Under the pieces are notes generated by a model. That model did no database searches, was not told the origin of the DNA, and saw only the letters and a list, made by a program, of their open reading frames with translations. From Thermoanaerobaculia bacterium (lineage in GTDB: Bacteria; Acidobacteriota; Thermoanaerobaculia; Multivoradales; JAGPDF01), in NCBI GenBank assembly GCA_048500095.1, contig JASNYQ010000001.1:246136-310135 (forward strand): a DNA stretch of 64,000 nt, in the 5' to 3' direction. Position numbers and translations under genes: made by a program. The stretch's first letter is position 1. Each line of letters starts with the position of its first letter. Below, one piece after another: positions 13,967 through 28,673 of this stretch.

Positions 13967-14642
13967 CATGTGCGGCCGCTACACCCTCTCCGCCCCCGGC
14001 GACGTCGTCGCCGAGAGCTTCGGCCTGCCGGAGGTGCCGGTGCTCGCGCCCCGCTTCAACATCGCGCCGTCGCAGCAGGTTCCGGTCGTGCGGGTGGCGC
14101 CCGGCGGGCCGGGGCGCGAGCTCGCCCTGGTGCGTTGGGGACTCGTCCCCTCGTGGGCGCGCGAGGCGGCGATCGGCAACCGGCTGATCAACGCCCGGGC
14201 CGAGACGGTGGCCGAGAAGCCCGCCTTCCGCGACTCCTTCCGGCGCCGCCGCTGCCTGGTGGTCGCCGACGGCTTCTACGAGTGGCGCCCCGAGGGGCGG
14301 CGCAAGCAGCCCTGGCACTTCCGGCGGTCCGACGGCGCGCCGTTCGGGCTCGCCGGGCTCTGGGCTCGCTGGCCCGACCCCGCCGGCGGCGACCTCGAGT
14401 CCTGCGCCATCGTCACCACGGACGCCAACGACGCGGTCCGCCCGGTCCACGCCCGGATGCCGGTGCTCCTGGACCGCGCCGGCGCCGAGCTCTGGCTCGC
14501 CGACGGCGCCGACCCCGGCCGGATCGCCAGCCTCCTCGCTCCCGCTCCCCCCGGAGTCCTCGTCGGGTATCCCGTCTCGCCGGCGGTCAACGACCCGCGG
14601 CACGACACTTCCGACTGCATCCTCCCGCTCGCCGGCCGCTAG
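13967..14642 (+). CDS. yedK: SOS-response-associated peptidase (SRAP / YedK / HMCES family abasic-site sensor)
   Basis: N-terminal MCGRY with catalytic Cys2. ...RFNIAPSQ...LVRWGLVPSWA...CLVVADGFYEW... Divergent from the hydrolase gene, 53 nt apart. Confidence 0.85.
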
Positions 14643-14724: not shown

Positions 14725-16401
14725 CTAGAAGCTGTACCGCAGCCCGAAGGTCGCGAGCAGCGGGTTGGGGTCGACCTCGATCGGCTCGAAGGTGCGGAGC
14801 AGGTCCGGCTCGTAGTGGATGTAGCGCAGACCGGCGTGGAACCCCCACGGATGCATGACGCCGAAGGGAATCTCCAGGCCGAGCTGGGCCCCGAGGCCGA
14901 ACTCGTCGGTGGGCCGGCGGCTCGGCGTGCTGCCGGGCACCGTGAACTCCGACTCGTCCATCGTCGTCCAGGCGAGGAACGGCCCGAAGTAGAGGTTCAG
15001 GCGGTCCCGGCGGAAGAAGTGGAAGTTCGGCCCGACCGAGAGCGTGAGCGCCGTGATCGTGTCGTCCGAAGAGGCCAGCTGGTTGTCGAGACCGTAGCGA
15101 TAGCCGGTGTCGATCTTGCCCCAGTTGATGGCGCCCTCGAACCCGAAGAGCTCGTTGATGTGGTACTCCGTCGCGAGACCGAGCCCCCAGCCGTTCTCGA
15201 ACCGGAAGTGCTCGCGCTCCGAGGCGCCGTTGGCGCGGCGCTGCTGCGCGAAGTGCCAGTCGCTCTCCGGATCCCAGTGCGAGAGGAAGCCGCGCACCGT
15301 CCAGAGCGGATGGACGCGGACCTGCACGCTGTCGGTGGCCGCGGCCCCGACCGCGTTCTTCGCCGTGCCCTCGAAGTCGTAGATGCCCATGCGCGGCATG
15401 ACGACCTCGCCCGTCTCCTCGGTGAACCGGGCATCGAGCTTCGGTCCCTTGGCGGTGACCACCAGCGGGTCGACGATCCCGCACTCGCCCTCGCGGTCCC
15501 AGTAGCCCTTCGCCTCGTAGCGGGCGGTGTCGCCCCGCCGGATGTAGTCGGGACCGACGGTGACGTCGATGGCCGGCGCCGGCGGCTCGATGCGAGCCAG
15601 CTGAGCGGTCGCGGTACAGGGGTTCCCCTCGATCGTCTCCATCCGGTGGCTCTCACCGGCGAAGGCGAGGTTGCCGCACGCCTTCGGGATCACGAAGTCG
15701 TAGCGGCGCACCCGCCGCTCGACCCGTGGGGCGGGCGCCGCGACCACGAACTCGTAGTCGGCGCAGTAGCGCTTGACCCACGGGCCCTGCCACTCCGAGG
15801 CGCCGGCCGGCACCACGACCTGCTCGCCGTCCGGTCCCTTCATCGTGACCGTCGCCCCGGCCGAGCTCCCGGCCGAGCTCGCGCGGACCGTCTTCGCCTC
15901 CGGATCCCCGGTCACCTCGAGGGCGCAGACCGCGTCCGGGTTCTCCGGCGCCTCCTTCACCTCGACCGCCACCACGAAGGCGGGGTAGGCGCGCTTGCCG
16001 GCGTAGCAGGCGGGGGTGATCAGCTTCGCGGGCCCTCGCCGGTTGGGCCGGTAGACCATCCAGTTGAGCGCCTCGCCCCGCTCGAGCGTGCGCTCCTCGA
16101 CCTGGCCGGCGGCCACCGCCTCGGCCAGCGCGCCCGCGATCTCGCCGAGGCCGTTCGCCTCCAGGATGCCGCGGATCTCGTCGCCCTGCGCGACGAACAG
16201 CGCCTGCAGCCCGGCCACGTCCTGGACCGGCACCTTGAGCGCGAACGGCCGCTGCCCCAGGTTGTGAATCTGGTTCTTCGGCTTGTACTCGGCACAGACC
16301 GGCGCGTCTGCGGCAAAGCCGGCCACCGCCGTCGCGAGCGCCAGCACGCAGACGCATGCCAGGAACGCTCCGAACCTCCCCTTCCCGCGCACTGAACCCA
16401 T
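14725..16401 (-). CDS. Outer-membrane beta-barrel protein (OmpA-like/porin-like C-terminus ending in Phe)
   Basis: Signal peptide FLACVCVLALATAVAGFAA. C-terminal alternating amphipathic strands ending ...LLATFGLRYSF. RBS GGAGGAGAG upstream. Confidence 0.65.
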   Translation of the reverse strand: MGSVRGKGRFGAFLACVCVLALATAVAGFAADAPVCAEYKPKNQIHNLGQRPFALKVPVQDVAGLQALFVAQGDEIRGILEANGLGEIAGALAEAVAAGQVEERTLERGEALNWMVYRPNRRGPAKLITPACYAGKRAYPAFVVAVEVKEAPENPDAVCALEVTGDPEAKTVRASSAGSSAGATVTMKGPDGEQVVVPAGASEWQGPWVKRYCADYEFVVAAPAPRVERRVRRYDFVIPKACGNLAFAGESHRMETIEGNPCTATAQLARIEPPAPAIDVTVGPDYIRRGDTARYEAKGYWDREGECGIVDPLVVTAKGPKLDARFTEETGEVVMPRMGIYDFEGTAKNAVGAAATDSVQVRVHPLWTVRGFLSHWDPESDWHFAQQRRANGASEREHFRFENGWGLGLATEYHINELFGFEGAINWGKIDTGYRYGLDNQLASSDDTITALTLSVGPNFHFFRRDRLNLYFGPFLAWTTMDESEFTVPGSTPSRRPTDEFGLGAQLGLEIPFGVMHPWGFHAGLRYIHYEPDLLRTFEPIEVDPNPLLATFGLRYSF

Positions 16402-16480
16402 CTCTCCTCCCCTGCAGTCCTCGTCACCGCCGGGCGACTGGGATCCCGGCTTCTGGACCGCGCTGATCCGAGGAGAAATT

Positions 16481-17836
16481 CTACTTCATCCCGAGGGCCG
16501 TCGCGGGGGCCCCGACGCCGGTTCCGGAGTCGCTCGCGCCGGCGGTCAGGGCCCGGGCCGCGCCGACTCCCGCCACGTGGCCGCTCGCCCAGGCCCACTG
16601 GAAATTGAAGCCGCCGAGGCGCCCGTCGACGTCGCAGATCTCCCCGCAGAGATGGAGGCCGGCGGCGCGGCGCGAGGCCATCGTGCGCAGGTCGATCTCC
16701 CCGAGCGGCACGCCGCCGGCCGTGACCTCGGCGGCCGCGAACCCCCGATCCCCCACGATCGGCAGCGTCAGACCACTCAGGCAGCGCACGAGGGCGCGGC
16801 GGTCCTCGCGCCGCAGCCGGTGCCCGGGAGTCCCCGGCTCCACCCCGGCGAGCTGGCAGATCGCCTCGGCCAGGCGGGGCGGCAGGCTCTCGGCGAGCAG
16901 GGACCGGACCGGCCGCGGGCCGAGCGCGGCCAGCGCCCCCTCCCACTCCTCCGCACGGCGGCCCGGCTGGAAGGAGACGGCGAGGTGGGCTCCCGGATCC
17001 TCCCGGCGGACGGCGAGCAGGTGCCGGCTGACGTCGAGCACCGCCGGCCCGGAGATCCCGAAGTGGGTGCAGAGCATCGGCCCGGCGACCTCGGCGAGGC
17101 GCCGGCCGGAGGCCGTCCGGACCGCCAAGGCGACCGGCACCGAGAGGCCGGAGAGCGACCGGAACGGGTGATCCGCGGCGAGGACGAGGGGCACCAGCGC
17201 CGGAAAGGTCGCAGTGACCCGGTGGCCGAGGGCGGCGGCGAGGGGGTAGCCGCTCCCGTCCGAGCCGCTCTTCGGCAGGCTCCGGCCGCCGGTCGCGAGG
17301 ACCACCCGGGCCGCGGCGAGCGCCCCCCACCGCCCGGACACCACGAGGCCCGCGCCGCCGGGAGCCAGCGCCGTCACCCGGCGGGCGCTCCGGAGCTCCA
17401 CCCCTCGCCGCGCGGCCTCGCCGAGCAGGGCGTCGAGGACGGTGCGCGCCCGGCCGCTCGCCGGGAAGAGCTTTCCCCCCTCCTCGCGCCGCACCGCGAC
17501 GCCGAGGCCGGCGAAGAAGGCGAGCGCGGCCTCGACGTCGAACTGCCGGAGCACCTTGTCGACTGCGGGGGGCGAGGCGCCGTGGAAGTCCCGGCCGGAG
17601 ACCGTCTCGTTCGTCAGATTGCAGCGGCCGCCGCCGGAGACGAGGATCTTGGCGCCGGGCCGGGCCGCCCCGTCGAGCGCCACCACCCGGGCGCCCGGCG
17701 CCGTGCGGGCGGCCCAGATCGCCGCCGCGAGGCCGGCCGCCCCGGCCCCCACCACGGCCACGTCGCAGCGCTCCACGGCGCGCTCCGGCCGCTCCGCGGC
17801 GCGCTCAGCCGCCGCGGGCGATGCGGGCGAGGGCAT
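16481..17836 (-). CDS. FAD-dependent oxidoreductase, HI0933/BaiN-like flavoprotein family
   Basis: CDVAVVGAGAAGLAAA dinucleotide fold, ...ILVSGGGRCNLTN... The exact start is uncertain (overlaps the Crp stop by ~30 nt). Confidence 0.75.
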   Translation of the reverse strand: MPSPASPAAAERAAERPERAVERCDVAVVGAGAAGLAAAIWAARTAPGARVVALDGAARPGAKILVSGGGRCNLTNETVSGRDFHGASPPAVDKVLRQFDVEAALAFFAGLGVAVRREEGGKLFPASGRARTVLDALLGEAARRGVELRSARRVTALAPGGAGLVVSGRWGALAAARVVLATGGRSLPKSGSDGSGYPLAAALGHRVTATFPALVPLVLAADHPFRSLSGLSVPVALAVRTASGRRLAEVAGPMLCTHFGISGPAVLDVSRHLLAVRREDPGAHLAVSFQPGRRAEEWEGALAALGPRPVRSLLAESLPPRLAEAICQLAGVEPGTPGHRLRREDRRALVRCLSGLTLPIVGDRGFAAAEVTAGGVPLGEIDLRTMASRRAAGLHLCGEICDVDGRLGGFNFQWAWASGHVAGVGAARALTAGASDSGTGVGAPATALGMK

Positions 17837-18518
17837 CCGCGTCCGCGATGAGGAAGCCGCCGCCCCGCTCGGTGCGCACGATCCCCCGCTTCGCCCAGCG
17901 GCCGAGGATGCGGATCGCGGTCTCCGCCGTCGTGCCGACGAAGTCGGCGAGCTCCTGCCGGGTGAGGCGCAACGGGATGAGGCGGCCGCCGGGCACGCTC
18001 CGGCCGACCTCGTCGGAGAGCTTCCCGAGGAGGCGGGCGAGGCGGGCGTCGACGTGCCCGCCTGCGAGGTCGGCGAGCCGGCTCGTGAGCTGGATCAGGC
18101 GCATCGTCATGCCGGCGAGCAGGCCCCGCGCGATCGACGGATGCTCCTCGAGCAGCGCGAGAAAGGCGTCGCGCGGCAGGACGAGACAGGTCGCCGCTTC
18201 GGTCGCCACCGCGGTGGCGGGGAAGGGATGCCCCTCGTAGGCGGCGATCGCCCCGAGCGGATCGCCCGGGCCGAAGAGCTCGAGGATCACCTCCTTGCCG
18301 GCCGGGGTGATCTTGACCACCTTGACGCGACCGCTCACCACGGTGAAGAAGTGGCGCGAGGGGTCCCCCTCGCGGAAGACCGCCTTCCCCCGCCGGTAGG
18401 AGCGGAGCTCGGCGAGCTGCGCGATCCGCGCCCGGTCCCCCTCCGCGAGGCGGCGGAAGAGGACGCTCGCCGCGAGCCACGCCTCGACCTCCAAACGGCG
18501 GGCATCGGCGTCGGCCAT
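17805..18518 (-). CDS. Crp/Fnr family transcriptional regulator
   Basis: cNMP-binding fold (FREGDPSRHFFTVVSGRVKVV...GKEVILELFGPGDPLG) and C-terminal HTH (RQELADFVGTTAETAIRILGRW). Confidence 0.8.
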   Translation of the reverse strand: MADADARRLEVEAWLAASVLFRRLAEGDRARIAQLAELRSYRRGKAVFREGDPSRHFFTVVSGRVKVVKITPAGKEVILELFGPGDPLGAIAAYEGHPFPATAVATEAATCLVLPRDAFLALLEEHPSIARGLLAGMTMRLIQLTSRLADLAGGHVDARLARLLGKLSDEVGRSVPGGRLIPLRLTRQELADFVGTTAETAIRILGRWAKRGIVRTERGGGFLIADADALARIARGG

Positions 18519-18553
18519 GGCCGCGATGCTAGCGCAGCCGGGGCCCCGCCCCG

Positions 18554-19792
18554 TCAGGCGGCGCGGGCGGCGTCGAACGCCGCGAGACGGCGCTGGAAGC
18601 GCCGGCCGAAGACCTTCGCCATCGCCCGCAGCTTGAGCCGCTGGAAGGGATAGCTGCGGTCGGAGAACGCCCGGCACTCCTCCGGGAGCATGACGAGGCT
18701 CACGTGGATGTTCGGCGCCACGCCCACCGGCAGGCCGGCCTCCATGCAGGTCTCGTACAGGCGGCGGAAGACCGGGATCATCGACTCGGTGGTCGGCGGC
18801 TCGGCCGCCGCCATGTCGGTGCCGACCAGCGGGCGGAAGACGCAGACGGTCGGCACCGCGCCCACCGAGGTGATCCACTCGATCGCGCGGATCGACGACT
18901 CCGGCGGCTCGAGGCCGGCCACGATCTCGCCGTTGGTCACCCAGGGCTCGTCCTTCGGCCCCTTGTGCTTGAGGGTGGCGCAGTAGCGGATCGCCTCGAG
19001 GTAGTGGTCGAGGCCGTACTCGGCGTCCTTGCCGGGGCAGATCTCGCGGAAGATCTCGCGGTCGAAGATCTCGAAGCAGAAGGAGGCGCGGTTGACCCCG
19101 AGCTCGCGCAGCTCGTCGTACCGCTTGAGATCGCGGTGCGGCGGCGTCTGCACGCCGACCAGCAGGCCGGTCTCCTTCTTGATCCGCCGGATGTACGGCA
19201 ACAGGATGTCGAGGTAGGTGTCCCCCTCGTAGTGGCCGGTGTTGAAGTCGACGTAGGTGATCCCGGACTCGTCGCGTGCCGCGCGCACGACCTCCATCAC
19301 CTCGTCGACCGACTTCTCGTCGGCGTCGTCGACGCCGAGGTTGAGGCCGACCGAGCAGAACTTGCAGTTCACCTTCTGCGGCTTGGCGGTCCAGTACTCG
19401 CACACCTTCGCCGGATAGACGCCGAGGTAGGTCCCCTGCAGCGTGCCGATCCGCGTCATCGGCTTGCCGGTCGTGGTCGGGCGGTCGTACCAGCCGGGCC
19501 GCGGCGAGAGCTCCACCTTCGTCACCTCGGAGCCGTCGTGGTAGAGGTGATACTCGCCGCCGCTCTTGTGGAGCGTGTAGGGGGACCGGGCGGCGAACGG
19601 CTCGCTCACCGGGGCGTTGGTCCACAGCCCGCCGGGGAGGATGAGCTCCAGGCCGCTCCCGAGCCCGGCCCGGGTGCGCAGGATCTTGCGGCCCCCGTCC
19701 TCCTCGATGAAGCAGGAGTCGTCGAGCCGCAGCCCCTTGCAGTAGAGGTCGAGCTTCACCAGGGCGGGGGTGGTGCGCAGCGCTTCGAGCAT
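18554..19792 (-). CDS. Radical-SAM-like Fe-S enzyme with a non-canonical Cx12Cx2C cluster motif
   Basis: VYPAKVCEYWTAKPQKVNCKFCSVGLN core. Overall layout (TIM-barrel-like blocks LGVNRASFCFEI, NGEIVAGLEPPESS) resembles radical SAM proteins. ATG at 19792 preceded by GAGGAGGAGAG. Confidence 0.55.
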   Translation of the reverse strand: MLEALRTTPALVKLDLYCKGLRLDDSCFIEEDGGRKILRTRAGLGSGLELILPGGLWTNAPVSEPFAARSPYTLHKSGGEYHLYHDGSEVTKVELSPRPGWYDRPTTTGKPMTRIGTLQGTYLGVYPAKVCEYWTAKPQKVNCKFCSVGLNLGVDDADEKSVDEVMEVVRAARDESGITYVDFNTGHYEGDTYLDILLPYIRRIKKETGLLVGVQTPPHRDLKRYDELRELGVNRASFCFEIFDREIFREICPGKDAEYGLDHYLEAIRYCATLKHKGPKDEPWVTNGEIVAGLEPPESSIRAIEWITSVGAVPTVCVFRPLVGTDMAAAEPPTTESMIPVFRRLYETCMEAGLPVGVAPNIHVSLVMLPEECRAFSDRSYPFQRLKLRAMAKVFGRRFQRRLAAFDAARAA

Positions 19793-19812
19793 CTCTCCTC
19801 CTCGCAGCCAGT

Positions 19813-20277
19813 CTACCGTCCGGGCCGCGCCCGGGCGGCGGCGACCGCGGTCCGCGCCAGCGGCACCCGGCCGCGGGCCGCCTCGAAGGCGGCGATGTCG
19901 GCGAGGCTCGTCGCCTTGAGAAACGCCCACAGGGCCTCGCGCTGGACCTTCCAGACCTCGTGCGCCGGGCAGGCACCTTCGTCGCTGCAGCCGTCGAGCG
20001 CGAGCAGGCAGCGCGGCTGGGTCACGGGGTCGTCGAGGGCGGCGCAGAGATCCCAGACGGTGATCTCCGCCGCCGGCCGCGCGAGGTGCACCCCCCCGCC
20101 GATGCCGCGCTGGGTCGCCACCAGCCCGCGGCGGCCGAGGGAGTTGACGATCTTCGCCAGGTACGGCGGCGGCAGGGCGAGCGCTTCGGCGATCTCCCGC
20201 ACCAGGACCGGGCGCGAGCCGTTGGTGGCGAGAAAGGAGAGGGCGGAGACGGCGTAGCCGGTCGTCTGACTGAGCAT
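19813..20277 (-). CDS. Rrf2 family transcriptional regulator (three-Cys Fe-S/redox-sensing type)
   Basis: MLSQTTGYAVSALSFLA...VREIAEALALPPPYLAKIVNSL and CLLALDGCSDEGACP (C-x6-C-x5-C). Confidence 0.8.
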   Translation of the reverse strand: MLSQTTGYAVSALSFLATNGSRPVLVREIAEALALPPPYLAKIVNSLGRRGLVATQRGIGGGVHLARPAAEITVWDLCAALDDPVTQPRCLLALDGCSDEGACPAHEVWKVQREALWAFLKATSLADIAAFEAARGRVPLARTAVAAARARPGR

Positions 20278-20336
20278 CCCGGGGGATCGTAGGAGTTCAG
20301 GACCCGATTGTCGAGATTGACAGGGGGGAGACCCGC

Positions 20337-20753
20337 TCAGGAGGAGCGGTTGATGCGCCGGAGGTGCGAGACGAGCGCCGCGATCTCCGGATCGCCCACG
20401 TCGGGCAGGCCGGCAAGCCCCGGCATCTGGCGGCCGGTGCGGTTGCCCTCCTCGCCGGGAGCGCGGCCGCGCCGCAGGAAGCCCTGGAGCTCCGGGTCGC
20501 TCCGCTCGGCGACGAAGCGGCTCGCGGTGAGATCGACGCCGAGCGGCGCCAGGCCCCGGCCGTCGACCGAGTGGCAGGAGATGCAGTGGGCGCGGAAGAC
20601 CTGCTGGCCGTGGGACTGGTCCGCGGTGAGGGCCGGCGGCACGGCCGGCGGCGGCGCCGCCGGACGCGCGGCGCTCCCCTCCCCTGCCCCGTCGCCGCAG
20701 GCCGCGAGGAGGGCCGTCGTCCCGAGCCAGGCGAGCGACCGGTGCCACCGCAT
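20337..20753 (-). CDS. Lipoprotein c-type cytochrome (single CxxCH)
   Basis: Lipobox LLAACGDG, heme motif CISCHS. ATG at 20753 is 7 nt after GGCTAGACT. Confidence 0.6.
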   Translation of the reverse strand: MRWHRSLAWLGTTALLAACGDGAGEGSAARPAAPPPAVPPALTADQSHGQQVFRAHCISCHSVDGRGLAPLGVDLTASRFVAERSDPELQGFLRRGRAPGEEGNRTGRQMPGLAGLPDVGDPEIAALVSHLRRINRSS

Positions 20754-20769
20754 CGGGAGTAGTCTAGCC
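20754..20769 (-). promoter_or_regulatory. GGCTAGACTA element 7 nt upstream of the cytochrome c ATG
   Basis: Minus strand GGGAGCGGCTAGACTACTCCCG-ATG. The plus strand of the same site reads TAGTCTAGCC, facing the divergent CPA2 gene. Confidence 0.4.
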
Positions 20770-20817
20770 GCTCCCGCCCGCGGGCTTGCTCCCGCGCGGA
20801 GCTCCGCCGGAGGCGCG

Positions 20818-22104
20818 ATGGACAACCACGAGCTCACGATCGCCTTCTTCCTGGCGCTCGCGGCGATTCTCCTCGCCTGCCGGCTGGTGGGCTACCTCGC
20901 GCGCTTCCTCGGCCAGCCGCAGGTGGTCGGCGAGATGATCGCCGGGGTGCTGCTCGGCCCCTCCCTCTTCGGCTGGATCGCCCCCGGGCTGCAGGGCCGG
21001 CTCTTCCCCGGCGCCGTGATGCCCGTCCTCTACGCGGTGGCGCAGGTGGGCCTCGTGCTCTACATGTTCCTGGTCGGCCTCGACTTCGACCTCGGGCTGC
21101 TGCGGCGGCGGGCGCGGAGCGCGGTGGCCGTCTCCTGGGCCGGGATCCTCGCGCCGTTCGGGCTGGGGGCGGCGATCGCCTGGGCGTTCCACGGCGAGCA
21201 GCTGCTCTTCGCGGAGGGTGTCTCGACCGGCCAGGCGGCCCTCTTCATGGGGGCGGCAATGTCGATCACCGCCTTCCCGATGCTGGCGCGGATCATCTAC
21301 GAGCGCGGCCTCTCGGGGACCTCGATGGGGACGCTCGCGCTCGCCGCCGGGTCGGCCGACGATGCCGCCGCCTGGTGCATCCTGGCGGTCGTTCTCGCGA
21401 GCTTCAGCGGCGATCCGGCGATCGCCGTCTGGGCGATCGGCGGCGGCCTCGCCTTCGCGCTCGTGGCCTTCCTCGTGCTGCGGCCCGTGCTCGCCCGGGC
21501 GGGCGGCTGGATCACCCGGCGCGGCGCCTACGACAGCGTGGCGCTGCCCGGCGCCCTCACCCTGCTCATGTTCGCCGCCTGGTACACCGACCGGGTGGGG
21601 ATCTACGCGGTCTTCGGCGCCTTCGTGCTCGGCGCCGCAATGCCGGGCGGCGAGATCGCGCGTCAGATCGAGCGCCGGGTCCAGCCGCTCACCGTGAACC
21701 TCCTGCTGCCGCTCTTCTTCATCTACTCGGGCCTGAACACGCGCATCGGCCTCGTCGACTCCTCCTTCCTCTGGGGGATCGCGGGGCTGGTCCTGCTCGC
21801 CGCCTGTCTCGGGAAGGGCGCCGCCTGCTACGCGGCGGCGCGGCTCTCCGGCGAGCCGCCGCGCGAGGCCCTCGGGATCGGCGCGCTCATGAACGCCCGC
21901 GGCCTCATGGAGCTGATCATCCTGAACATCGGCCTGGAGCGCGGGGTGATCACGCCCACCCTCTTCTCGATCATGGTGCTGATGGCGATCGCCACCACCC
22001 TCATGGCGCTGCCCGTCTTCAACCTCGCCTTCGGCGGGAGGGTGGTGGGCGAGGCGGCGCTCGCGCCGCCGTCCCGCGCCCCCGGCCCGCTGCGCGACGA
22101 CTGA
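20818..22104 (+). CDS. Cation:proton antiporter, CPA2 family (Kef/NapA-like)
   Basis: ~12 TM. LARFLGQPQVVGEMIAGVLLGPS..., ...MFLVGLDFD... typical of Na+/H+-K+/H+ exchanger cores. Confidence 0.85.
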   Translation: MDNHELTIAFFLALAAILLACRLVGYLARFLGQPQVVGEMIAGVLLGPSLFGWIAPGLQGRLFPGAVMPVLYAVAQVGLVLYMFLVGLDFDLGLLRRRARSAVAVSWAGILAPFGLGAAIAWAFHGEQLLFAEGVSTGQAALFMGAAMSITAFPMLARIIYERGLSGTSMGTLALAAGSADDAAAWCILAVVLASFSGDPAIAVWAIGGGLAFALVAFLVLRPVLARAGGWITRRGAYDSVALPGALTLLMFAAWYTDRVGIYAVFGAFVLGAAMPGGEIARQIERRVQPLTVNLLLPLFFIYSGLNTRIGLVDSSFLWGIAGLVLLAACLGKGAACYAAARLSGEPPREALGIGALMNARGLMELIILNIGLERGVITPTLFSIMVLMAIATTLMALPVFNLAFGGRVVGEAALAPPSRAPGPLRDD

Positions 22105-25202: not shown

Positions 25203-26620
<1,418 letters not shown>

Positions 26621-26624
<4 letters not shown>

Positions 26625-28030
26625 GACACTACCTCCTCGGCGGCGAGAATCCGGTTCACGATCTCCGACTGGCCCGGCAGCACGCCCCCGTAGTGGCGGA
26701 CGTGCTCGATCAAGGGCGGCTTGAAGACCCCCGCCTGGCTCAAGGCGAGGCGCAGCTCGTCCTCGAGCTGGCCGTTCGAGGCCTCGACCACGACGATCCG
26801 CTCCACCCGCTTGAGCAGCGGCAGGAGGTGCTGGATGGGGAACGGCCAGAGCGTGACCGGCCGGAAGAGGCCGACCTTGACCCCCTTCTGCCGCAGCTGC
26901 TGCACCGCCCCCTTGGCCATCTGCGCCGGGGTGGTGGTGGCGACGATCAGGGTCTCGGCGTCGGCGCAGTGGAAGAGGTCGGCCCGCTGCTCGTTGGCCG
27001 TCATCTCCGCGTACTTGCCGAGCAGGTACTTGTTGTGGTCCTCGAGCTCCTGCTCGGAGAGGTAGATCGAGCAGATCAGGTTGCGCCGGTGGTCGTGGTC
27101 GCCCCACACCGCCCACTGCGGGCGACCCGGACGGACCATCTTGCGCGGCAGGGTGACGCGCCCGGTCATCTGGCCGAGGTAGCCGTCGCCGAGGATGACC
27201 ACCGGGTTCCGGTACTTGAACGAGAGCTGGAAGGCCAGCATCGTCAGGTCCAGCATCTCCTGCGGCGTGGAGGGCGCGAGCACGATGGCGTGGGTGTTGC
27301 CGTGCCCGAGGCCGCGGCAGGCGAGCTTGATGTCCGACTGCTCGGGGGCGATGTTCCCCAGGCCGGGGCCGCCGCGCATGATGTCGAGGAAGACCCCCGG
27401 CACCTCGGAGCCGATCATGTACGAGATCCCCTCCAGCATCAGGCTGAAGCCCGGCGAGGAGGTGAAGGTGAGGCAGGGCAGACCGGCGCCGCCGCAGCCG
27501 TACATGATGTTGACCGTGGCGACCTCGGAGACCGCCTGCAGGAAGACGCCGTCGAGCTTGGGCAGCAGCTTCGCCATCAGCTCCGCGCCCTCGGTGGAGG
27601 GGGTGATCGGATAGCCGTAGACGTGGCGGCAGCCGGCGAGCATGGCGCCGATCGCGGCGGCGTAGTTGCCCTTGATGACCAGCGGCGCGGTGGCCGGCAG
27701 GTCGACCAGCTCGTCCGGGATCGGCTCGGCGTGCGGCGCGGCGGTCTCCCGCGCGCCGAAGAGATGTGCCGGGTCCTGCAGCTCGTAGTCCTCACCCGGC
27801 TGGACCTGCGGCTGCAGCCCGAACGGCTCGGGGCAGGCGGTGATGCAGAGCCCGCAGCCGTTGCACGCCTCGAGGTCGAGGACGATCGGGATCAGACCGG
27901 TCTGGGGGTTGATTTCCGTTCCCAGAGAGATACAGTGCTTCGAGCAGACATCGATGCAGCGCCCGCAGCCCTTGCAGTACTCCGGGAAGACGAACGGCTT
28001 GGGCCGTTCGCTGACTTGGGGTTGACTCAT
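26621..28030 (-). CDS. korA: 2-oxoacid:ferredoxin oxidoreductase alpha subunit with an N-terminal 2x[4Fe-4S] ferredoxin (delta) domain
   Basis: CKGCGRCIDVC...CNGCGLCITACP, then the alpha core (YGYPITPSTE, GGAGLPCLTFTSSPGFSLM). RBS AAGGAGG. Confidence 0.85.
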
Positions 28031-28193: not shown

Positions 28194-28673
28194 ATGCTCA
28201 CTCGCAGCTCCGAATACGCGCTCCGCGCGTTGACCTATCTCTCCCTGAAGGAGGACCGCACCAGCTGGGTCCTCGCCCGGCACATCGCCACGGAGCTCGG
28301 GATCCCTTCGCCGTTCCTCGCGAAGATCCTGCAGACGCTGGCCGGGGCCTCGATCCTCGAGAGCCAGCGCGGCCGGCGCGGCGGCTTCCGGCTCAACCGG
28401 AACCCGGAGCGGCTCTCGCTGCTCGAGATCATCGAGCCGTTCGACCGGCTGGAGAGCGAGCGCCTCTGCGTGCTGGGGCAGAAGGTCTGCTCCGACGAGA
28501 CCGCCTGCCCGCTCCACCACACCTGGAAGCACTCGCTGAACTCGTTCCTGCACCGGCTGCGCACGACCACGCTCGCCGATCTGCGCGACCACCCGATGGC
28601 GATGGGCTTTCCGAGCCGGCTCGAGCCGCCGAGCTCGCCCAGCGGTCCTTCCAACCTCGCCTCGATGGTCTGA
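28194..28673 (+). CDS. Rrf2 family transcriptional regulator (second paralog, three-Cys type)
   Basis: MLTRSSEYALRALTYLS...winged HTH...CVLGQKVCSDETACP. Confidence 0.8.
   Translation: MLTRSSEYALRALTYLSLKEDRTSWVLARHIATELGIPSPFLAKILQTLAGASILESQRGRRGGFRLNRNPERLSLLEIIEPFDRLESERLCVLGQKVCSDETACPLHHTWKHSLNSFLHRLRTTTLADLRDHPMAMGFPSRLEPPSSPSGPSNLASMV

Follow-up and report, generated by a model that had tools for sequence, protein, structure and literature searches.

A variant radical-SAM enzyme of Acidobacteriota in a lineage-specific arrangement with Rrf2 and Crp/Fnr regulators

In Proteobacteria, the regulators NsrR, HcpR and DNR interchange on the genes of the nitric oxide (NO) response (PMC1274295). 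The motif of HcpR in nitrosative-stress regulons is wyTTGACnnnnGTCAArw, and HcpR, DNR and NnrR all lack the cysteines of FNR; a residue other than arginine at CRP position 180, together with Glu181 and Arg185, goes with T rather than G at the third motif position (PMC1274295). Among radical S-adenosylmethionine (SAM) enzymes, RadicalSAM.org lists clusters with motifs from CX4 to CX11CX2C (PMC9477430), and the radical-SAM protein of the Nit1C gene cluster has been described as nearest to the 'biotin synthase-related' COG2516 genes (PMC1199592). Here we describe a variant radical-SAM (rSAM) gene in a stretch of 64,000 nucleotides (nt) from a Thermoanaerobaculia bacterium (contig JASNYQ010000001.1), which is referred to throughout as the window. 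The gene is preceded by that of an Rrf2-family regulator and followed by those of a Crp/Fnr-family regulator and an HI0933-type flavin adenine dinucleotide (FAD) protein.

The main object here is an enzyme newly added to a catalogued, uncharacterised family and found in a lineage-specific gene arrangement. With moderate confidence, we read it as an enzyme that stands alone within a low-oxygen or nitrosative-stress regulon and whose regulator has been swapped in the lineage of the window. The original prediction had taken the four genes as one redox-regulated operon; what it observed is confirmed, while its interpretation is only partly supported.

The variant radical-SAM enzyme and its lineage-specific surroundings

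The enzyme scores above the curated threshold of the Pfam family Radical_SAM (PF04055) and above that of the NCBIfam family NF045502 ('variant_rSAM'). The latter was the only NCBIfam model to pass when the enzyme was classified with profile hidden Markov models (HMMs), and a sequence search of the PDB with the family profile returned nothing below E = 0.1, so that the enzyme belongs to no characterised family, as had been supposed. Its cluster motif, CEYWTAKPQKVNCKFC, reads C131-x11-C143-x2-C146, or CX11CX2C; it had rightly been called non-canonical, but its spacing had been given as Cx12Cx2C and the length of the protein as 413 rather than 412 amino acids (aa). In an alignment of 69 full-length family representatives, the three cysteines are present in 63-65, as the original prediction had proposed to check. 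The first spacing varies from CX7 to CX14, with 8 the commonest and 10-11 found in the near clade. This non-canonical spacing is a known kind of variation and not a new one, as RadicalSAM.org already lists such motifs. The other eight cysteines of the enzyme are not conserved family-wide, and nothing therefore points to a family-wide auxiliary cluster.

The protein consists of a family-specific N-terminal domain (residues 1-120), for which no solved structural relative was found, and a barrel (residues ~120-355) with the partial or full (beta/alpha) fold of the radical-SAM superfamily. The best fold matches are LipA, HydG, HydE and BioB, and HydG, ThiH and NosL are among the structural matches. 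A GGE-like candidate, F-N-T-G186, has its glycine in 58/64 representatives and is assigned by position only, not from a SAM-bound structure; a GxIxGxxE-like candidate, GEIVAGLE (G293 in 62/64, E295 in 60/64), is likewise assigned by position only. On the basis of family and fold, C131, C143 and C146 most likely ligate a [4Fe-4S] cluster, and the enzyme would, like other radical-SAM enzymes, reductively cleave SAM to a 5'-deoxyadenosyl radical. The N-terminal domain probably supplies substrate recognition.

The family is small, with 140 clusters at E <= 1e-30 in a HMMER search of 1.84 billion representatives. A scan of one genome per species found relatives encoded in 294 genomes, almost all of them Acidobacteriota (Thermoanaerobaculia, including Multivoradales, Vicinamibacteria and Holophagales). 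Conservation of the enzyme within the acidobacterial clade is unusually high, at 73-83% identity over the 294 species genomes, and far above that of the neighbouring genes (50-56% for the neighbouring Crp regulator).

Gene order was compared in 73 loci, counting the window, the other 72 being species-level loci. The full four-gene set recurs only in a relative that is 94% identical (L084) and which also shares the flanking outer-membrane-protein-like, SRAP and beta-lactamase genes; on both counts its agreement can be put down to common ancestry, and it carries little independent weight. Two relatives at 83% identity (L085, L086) retain the exchanger, cytochrome c, Rrf2 and rSAM genes, followed by a glycosyltransferase gene on the opposite strand, and have neither the Crp nor the flavoprotein gene. 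Across the 72 other loci, an HI0933 flavoprotein is never found near the rSAM gene (0/72), and an Rrf2 gene is never adjacent; the single one seen lies on the other strand, at a distance of five genes. An orthologous Crp/Fnr gene lies within three genes on the same strand in 9/72, in seven of them immediately downstream; these orthologues are 50-56% identical and share an ETAIR recognition helix.

The four-gene set is a lineage-specific arrangement and not a conserved pathway. The original prediction of a single functional module had itself been staked on a synteny that is not conserved, and because of this Rrf2 and Crp appear as alternative controllers of one stand-alone gene. The HI0933 flavoprotein is probably a lineage-specific passenger in the transcript.

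A candidate Crp/Fnr box and the exchange of regulators

The palindrome ATGAC-N4-GTCAT was first noticed in front of the rSAM gene at loci where a Crp gene follows. The related loci, 1.10 Mb in all, contain 26 perfect copies where base composition predicts 0.24 (a ~100-fold enrichment). The mean for 320 palindromes of equal composition is 0.42 copies; after ATGAC-N4-GTCAT the most frequent has 8, seven of which stand in one tandem array at a single locus. The copies are almost all intergenic. With at most one mismatch, the box lies 42-140 nt upstream of the rSAM start codon in 17/73 loci, and its presence is associated with an adjacent orthologous Crp gene (6/8 assessable loci vs 12/63; Fisher p = 0.0026). 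Example sites are at 6629-6642 in L021, 2031-2044 in L023, 7855-7868 and 5832-5845 in L047, and ~897-910 in L016. Further boxes precede the divergent RIC and Crp genes of L047 and the gene of a TIGR04053 protein, as well as three kinds of gene recognised from the N-terminal sequences of their products on inspection, which are NarK-like, hemerythrin-like and heme A synthase-like. Five species (L016, L028, L034, L068, L070) carry two adjacent copies of the rSAM gene in tandem, and in L028 a box stands between the two. A different palindrome, GATAC-N4-GTATC, occurs seven times at 15940-16142 of L039, with starts alternately 21 and 42 bp apart and no gene start called nearby; these copies may form a repeated operator or an array of another kind.

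The recognition helix of the Crp/Fnr protein in the window reads A-E-T-A-I-R, and those of the acidobacterial regulators read A/I-E-T-A-I-R. With C111 as its only cysteine, the protein has no FNR-type iron-sulphur (Fe-S) motif; it lacks the N-terminal cysteine cluster of FNR proper, and it reaches no NCBIfam equivalog cut-off. In the 64-kb window itself, ATGAC-N4-GTCAT has no occurrence at up to one mismatch, the only hits being at two mismatches and all within coding sequence, and the classical FNR/CRP box TTGA-N6-TCAA has 0 matches. A paper on CRP/FNR regulons in anammox microbiomes covers neither Acidobacteria nor this box. We propose ATGAC-N4-GTCAT as a candidate Crp/Fnr (HcpR-like) box of Acidobacteriota. 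The box gives good evidence that the rSAM gene is often among the targets of a Crp/Fnr-type activator, the predicted regulon of which also takes in RIC, hemerythrin, nitrate and heme genes. Such membership points to a role in the response to low oxygen or nitrosative stress.

In the lineage of the window, the rSAM gene is preceded by a different type of control. A predicted sigma-70-like promoter lies in the 59 nt that separate the stop of cytochrome c from the start of Rrf2; no other promoter-like site occurs in 16000-21200, for which 0.1 is expected. Its hexamers and spacer are conserved in L084 (94%) and L085 (83%), and it likely starts an rrf2-rSAM-crp transcript with a very short leader; an Rfam search over the entire window matched no riboswitch, leader or other element. 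The cytochrome c gene is co-directional with Rrf2 and located upstream of this promoter. The Rrf2 protein had been described as a three-cysteine type, and it does carry C90-x6-C97-x5-C103 followed by H106, an IscR-like ligand pattern, with a fourth cysteine (C78) outside the motif. It falls below all equivalog cut-offs (SUF regulator 69/110.65, IscR 67/207.55, RirA 62/193 and NsrR 42/182 bits).

Taken together, the rSAM gene would behave across Acidobacteriota as a member of a low-oxygen or nitrosative-stress regulon, in many lineages with ATGAC-N4-GTCAT ahead of it and often with the gene of the presumed cognate Crp/Fnr regulator after it. In the lineage of the window, an Rrf2 gene with its own conserved promoter appears to have replaced the Crp-box promoter. 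An Fe-S or redox-sensing Rrf2 repressor, putative in both its direction of action and its signal, therefore probably controls rrf2-rSAM-crp. The flavoprotein gene may be co-transcribed (rrf2-rSAM-crp-FAD), and the Crp/Fnr protein made from this transcript may act on boxes elsewhere in the genome.

Several observations weigh against this account. In 56/73 loci there is no box directly upstream of the rSAM gene at up to one mismatch, and the content of the regulon was sampled only within 8 kb of that gene, and is hence biased. The set of neighbours is heterogeneous, including patatin (9 loci), an amidohydrolase, an FkbO-like protein and a tryptophanase-family lyase, and for this reason 'stress regulon' is to be taken as a theme and not as proof. 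The Rrf2 protein reaches no equivalog cut-off, and its signal may be Fe-S status, NO or redox; no inverted repeat was found in the four intergenic gaps, and no operator was recognised in the Rrf2 promoter. Finally, the flavoprotein could act with the enzyme in the lineage of the window.

Gene calls, neighbours and alternative readings

The G+C content of the window is ~74%, which yields long spurious open reading frames (ORFs) that merge into giant clusters, and so clustering of neighbours from raw six-frame ORFs was unusable. It was replaced by a gene caller based on codon-position GC, which was checked on the window. The features called are collected in Table 1. Pfam and NCBIfam bear out the four gene identities originally assigned (Rrf2, radical-SAM-like, Crp/Fnr and HI0933 flavoprotein), and the coordinates agree with the co-directional, minus-strand arrangement and the gaps of 20 and 35 nt that had been reported (19793-19812 between Rrf2 and rSAM; 18519-18553 between rSAM and crp). 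The four genes lie head to tail with coding-type codon-position GC (GC at third positions 0.95-0.98), and the ATG of the rSAM gene is preceded by a strong Shine-Dalgarno sequence, GGAGGAG. The flavoprotein start is ambiguous. From ATG 17836 the protein has 451 aa, and its gene overlaps crp by 32 nt, in line with the overlap of ~30 nt originally given; from GTG 17776, which has GGAG 6 nt upstream, it has 431 aa and a family-typical N-terminus just ahead of DVAVVGAGAAG, and the overlap gives way to a 28-nt gap.

Table 1. Positions in the window of the four genes, their parts and the adjoining features.
Feature	Position	Strand	Evidence
Rrf2-family regulator, 154 aa	19813-20277	-	PF02082 103 bits; TIGR00738 109 bits (cut-off 73.3)
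Variant radical-SAM enzyme, 412 aa	18554-19792	-	PF04055 41.9 bits (cut-off 29.5); NF045502 214.6 bits (cut-off 125), residues 11-350
N-terminal alpha/beta domain of the enzyme, 120 residues	19433-19792	-	Conserved RTRAGLGSG, SPY and P-x-WY motifs
Codons of the cluster motif	19355-19402	-	
Crp/Fnr-family regulator, 237 aa	17805-18518	-	PF00027 cNMP_binding 90.6 bits; PF13545 HTH_Crp_2 62.3 bits; PF00325 34.8 bits
HI0933/TIGR00275 FAD protein	16481-17836 (or from GTG 17776)	-	PF03486 HI0933_like 227 bits; PF22780 81 bits; TIGR00275 359.9 bits (cut-off 183.8); Rossmann and HI0933 barrel domains
Predicted sigma-70-like promoter	20286-20314	-	TCGACA-17 nt-TACGAT
Lipoprotein cytochrome c, 138 aa	20337-20753	-	PF00034 33.9 bits; lipobox LAAC; heme site CISCH
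CPA2-type Na+/H+ exchanger, divergent (context only)	20818-22104	+	PF00999 181.6 bits
Secreted 555-aa protein, weak outer-membrane beta-barrel C-terminus (context only)	14725-16392	-	PF13505 27.6 bits (just under cut-off 28.7)

The lipoprotein cytochrome c and the divergent exchanger had been correctly recognised upstream. On the other side, the gene of the secreted 555-aa protein is co-directional and 88 nt downstream of the FAD gene, and is also present in L084. Beyond it, at ~13970-14642 on the plus strand, an ORF missed by the GC-based caller encodes a product starting MCGRYTLS, the L084 counterpart of which is annotated as an SRAP protein (SOS-response-associated peptidase, PF02586). A second Rrf2-family gene, at 28194-28673 on the plus strand, scores 103 bits against PF02082 and falls short of the equivalog cut-offs for RirA, the SUF regulator and NsrR; it diverges from a pair of 2-oxoacid:ferredoxin oxidoreductase genes (25203-28030, minus strand).

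The rSAM gene is without fixed enzymatic partners, and its neighbours vary among loci. They include the Fe-S repair protein RIC (11 loci; TIGR03652 220.7 bits, above the cut-off), CBS-pair proteins (11), patatin (9), Usp, a NarK-type transporter and a NasC-like molybdoenzyme (8 each), hemerythrin (7), a tryptophanase-family lyase (6), the AhbD-like radical-SAM protein TIGR04053 (5; 450 bits), an FkbO-like protein (5) and a SufR-like regulator (4), as well as HemN (TIGR00538 560 bits) and protoporphyrinogen oxidase (TIGR00562 260 bits) in 2 loci each. The contexts of relatives at 40-61% identity (P0122, P0129, P0130, P0133, P0142) all differ, with no common pathway. A gene of the tryptophanase/tyrosine phenol-lyase family recurs beside the rSAM gene (5963-7369 in L087; gene -1 in L076, L080 and L058; gene -2 in L054), and in a 61%-identical relative the start of such a gene overlaps the rSAM stop by 4 nt, with a UbiA-family gene upstream. 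Some distant members of the family are fused to other domains, namely ATP-grasp (P0239, P0245), Prok-JAB (P0225) and an unannotated domain of ~110 aa at the C-terminus of P0132 and the N-terminus of P0134, the last of which bears no relation to the small gene that precedes P0133. Such fusions might give a clue to the substrates of the subfamilies concerned.

Fnr-type control of hemN is common, and heme-related neighbours suggest a different role for the enzyme. HemN (L001, L057) or protoporphyrinogen oxidase (L060, L082) is encoded immediately upstream on the same strand, within 150 nt, and the AhbD-like gene has box sites preceding it; these three kinds of neighbour together account for 9/73 loci. 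The 61%-identical relative follows a UbiA-family prenyltransferase gene and stands beside SCO1 and cytochrome b genes. The enzyme might accordingly be an oxygen-independent late heme or tetrapyrrole enzyme co-expressed with anaerobic heme enzymes, for instance an anaerobic substitute for an O2- or H2O2-dependent step of the coproporphyrin-dependent pathway. This is unlikely, as the association is weak and could reflect shared regulation only. A broader proposal, which we regard as doubtful, holds that the acidobacterial NF045502 clade is a new O2-independent radical-SAM enzyme with a novel N-terminal substrate domain; low O2 or NO would induce it by way of HcpR-like or Rrf2 regulators, and it would carry out a step in the maintenance of heme or Fe-S cofactors (the anaerobic coproporphyrin-pathway replacement being a candidate).

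That Rrf2, rSAM, Crp and the HI0933 protein form a dedicated redox-regulated modification or detoxification module, with the flavoprotein and the rSAM enzyme in one pathway, is improbable. The close spacing on a common strand and the retention of all four genes in L084 fit such a module, as does the fact that the distantly related Nit1C rSAM protein also travels with a flavoprotein (PMC1199592). However, L084 shares its flanks as well as 94% identity with the window, the Crp and FAD genes are gone at 83% identity, no HI0933 homologue is found near the rSAM gene in 72 other species, and the Nit1C flavoprotein is from a different family (PF00070/COG2072; PMC1199592).

An enzyme of the ThiH, HydG or NosL kind, with an aromatic amino acid (or its product) as substrate and a tryptophanase/tyrosine phenol-lyase-family enzyme working alongside it, is about as improbable; the tryptophanase-family neighbour and the structural matches to HydG, ThiH and NosL are suggestive, but this association too is weak and could be due to shared regulation alone.

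A role in maturing a ribosomally synthesised and post-translationally modified peptide (RiPP), or as a Nit1C-like secondary-metabolite enzyme, is highly improbable: the non-canonical motif and a weak TIGR04043 match (98.5 bits) could be read that way, but the match is far below the cut-off of 303.7; nitrilase, GNAT or AIR-synthase genes are neighbours in no locus, and the absence of Nit1C partners (nitrilase/GNAT) that had been reported holds for the window and for the recurrent neighbours in the 73 loci; the enzyme has neither a SPASM nor an RRE domain; a peptide would not fit into the gaps of 20 and 35 nt, and on the operon strand those of 59 and 88 nt contain no short ORF, in keeping with the earlier view that there is no precursor peptide; and conservation as high as 75-83% without a co-varying partner is unlike RiPP systems. 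A defence role was also considered and rejected, PADLOC matching only the generic cNMP-binding domain of Crp (Pycsar/TIR effector models) and none of rSAM, Rrf2 or FAD. Within the reach of the tools used, a role in RiPP, Nit1C or defence systems is excluded.

Significance and comparison with known systems

What was first labelled an 'operon of unknown function' is a local gene arrangement, and should not be treated as a new pathway. The strongly conserved rSAM enzyme, with its CX11CX2C motif and orphan N-terminal domain, is a reasonable target for radical-SAM enzymology. To our knowledge, almost no transcription-factor sites have been described in Acidobacteriota, and the ATGAC-N4-GTCAT box could be used to map a putative low-oxygen or nitrosative-stress regulon in this phylum. 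The locus also offers a likely example of regulator turnover, from a Crp-box promoter to an Rrf2 gene ahead of the same target.

The enzyme shares its barrel and lengthened first cysteine spacing with NF045502; the product name of that family is only 'radical SAM protein', with no function attached, and so membership names the enzyme without explaining it. RadicalSAM.org places CX8CX2C and CX9CX2C clusters in the biotin/thiazole-synthase megacluster and has one CX11CX2C cluster (PMC9477430), compared with CX7-14CX2C in the present family. That CX11CX2C cluster belongs to the ELP3/YhcC subgroup, whereas the best folds of the window enzyme are LipA, HydG, HydE and BioB. The nearest named relative is the MSMEG_0568/Nit1C rSAM protein (TIGR04043; 98.5 bits over residues 35-354). 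Of the seven-gene Nit1C cluster, none of the six other genes is present in the window or the 73 related loci, and no paper in the collection searched names MSMEG_0568 together with radical SAM.

Among the regulators, the Rrf2 protein of the window resembles IscR in its fold, its Cx6Cx5C motif and a histidine three residues after the last cysteine. As with IscR, NsrR and RirA, its gene heads an operon that it presumably autoregulates, but unlike theirs it does not adjoin isc, suf, hmp or hcp genes. The box found in the relatives has the same TGAC-N4-GTCA core as the HcpR motif, from which it differs in an A/T swap at its outermost position. Like HcpR and DNR, the acidobacterial regulator is without the FNR cysteines and has non-Arg, Glu and Arg at CRP positions 180, 181 and 185. 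The likeness to HcpR and DNR ends with the hcp, nor and hmp genes, none of which turned up in the loci sampled; RIC (dnrN), a member of the HcpR, DNR and NsrR regulons, is a regulon neighbour here too (PMC1274295). Where Rrf2 and Crp/Fnr genes alternate before a common target, the pattern is like that of NsrR, HcpR and DNR with which we began (PMC1274295).

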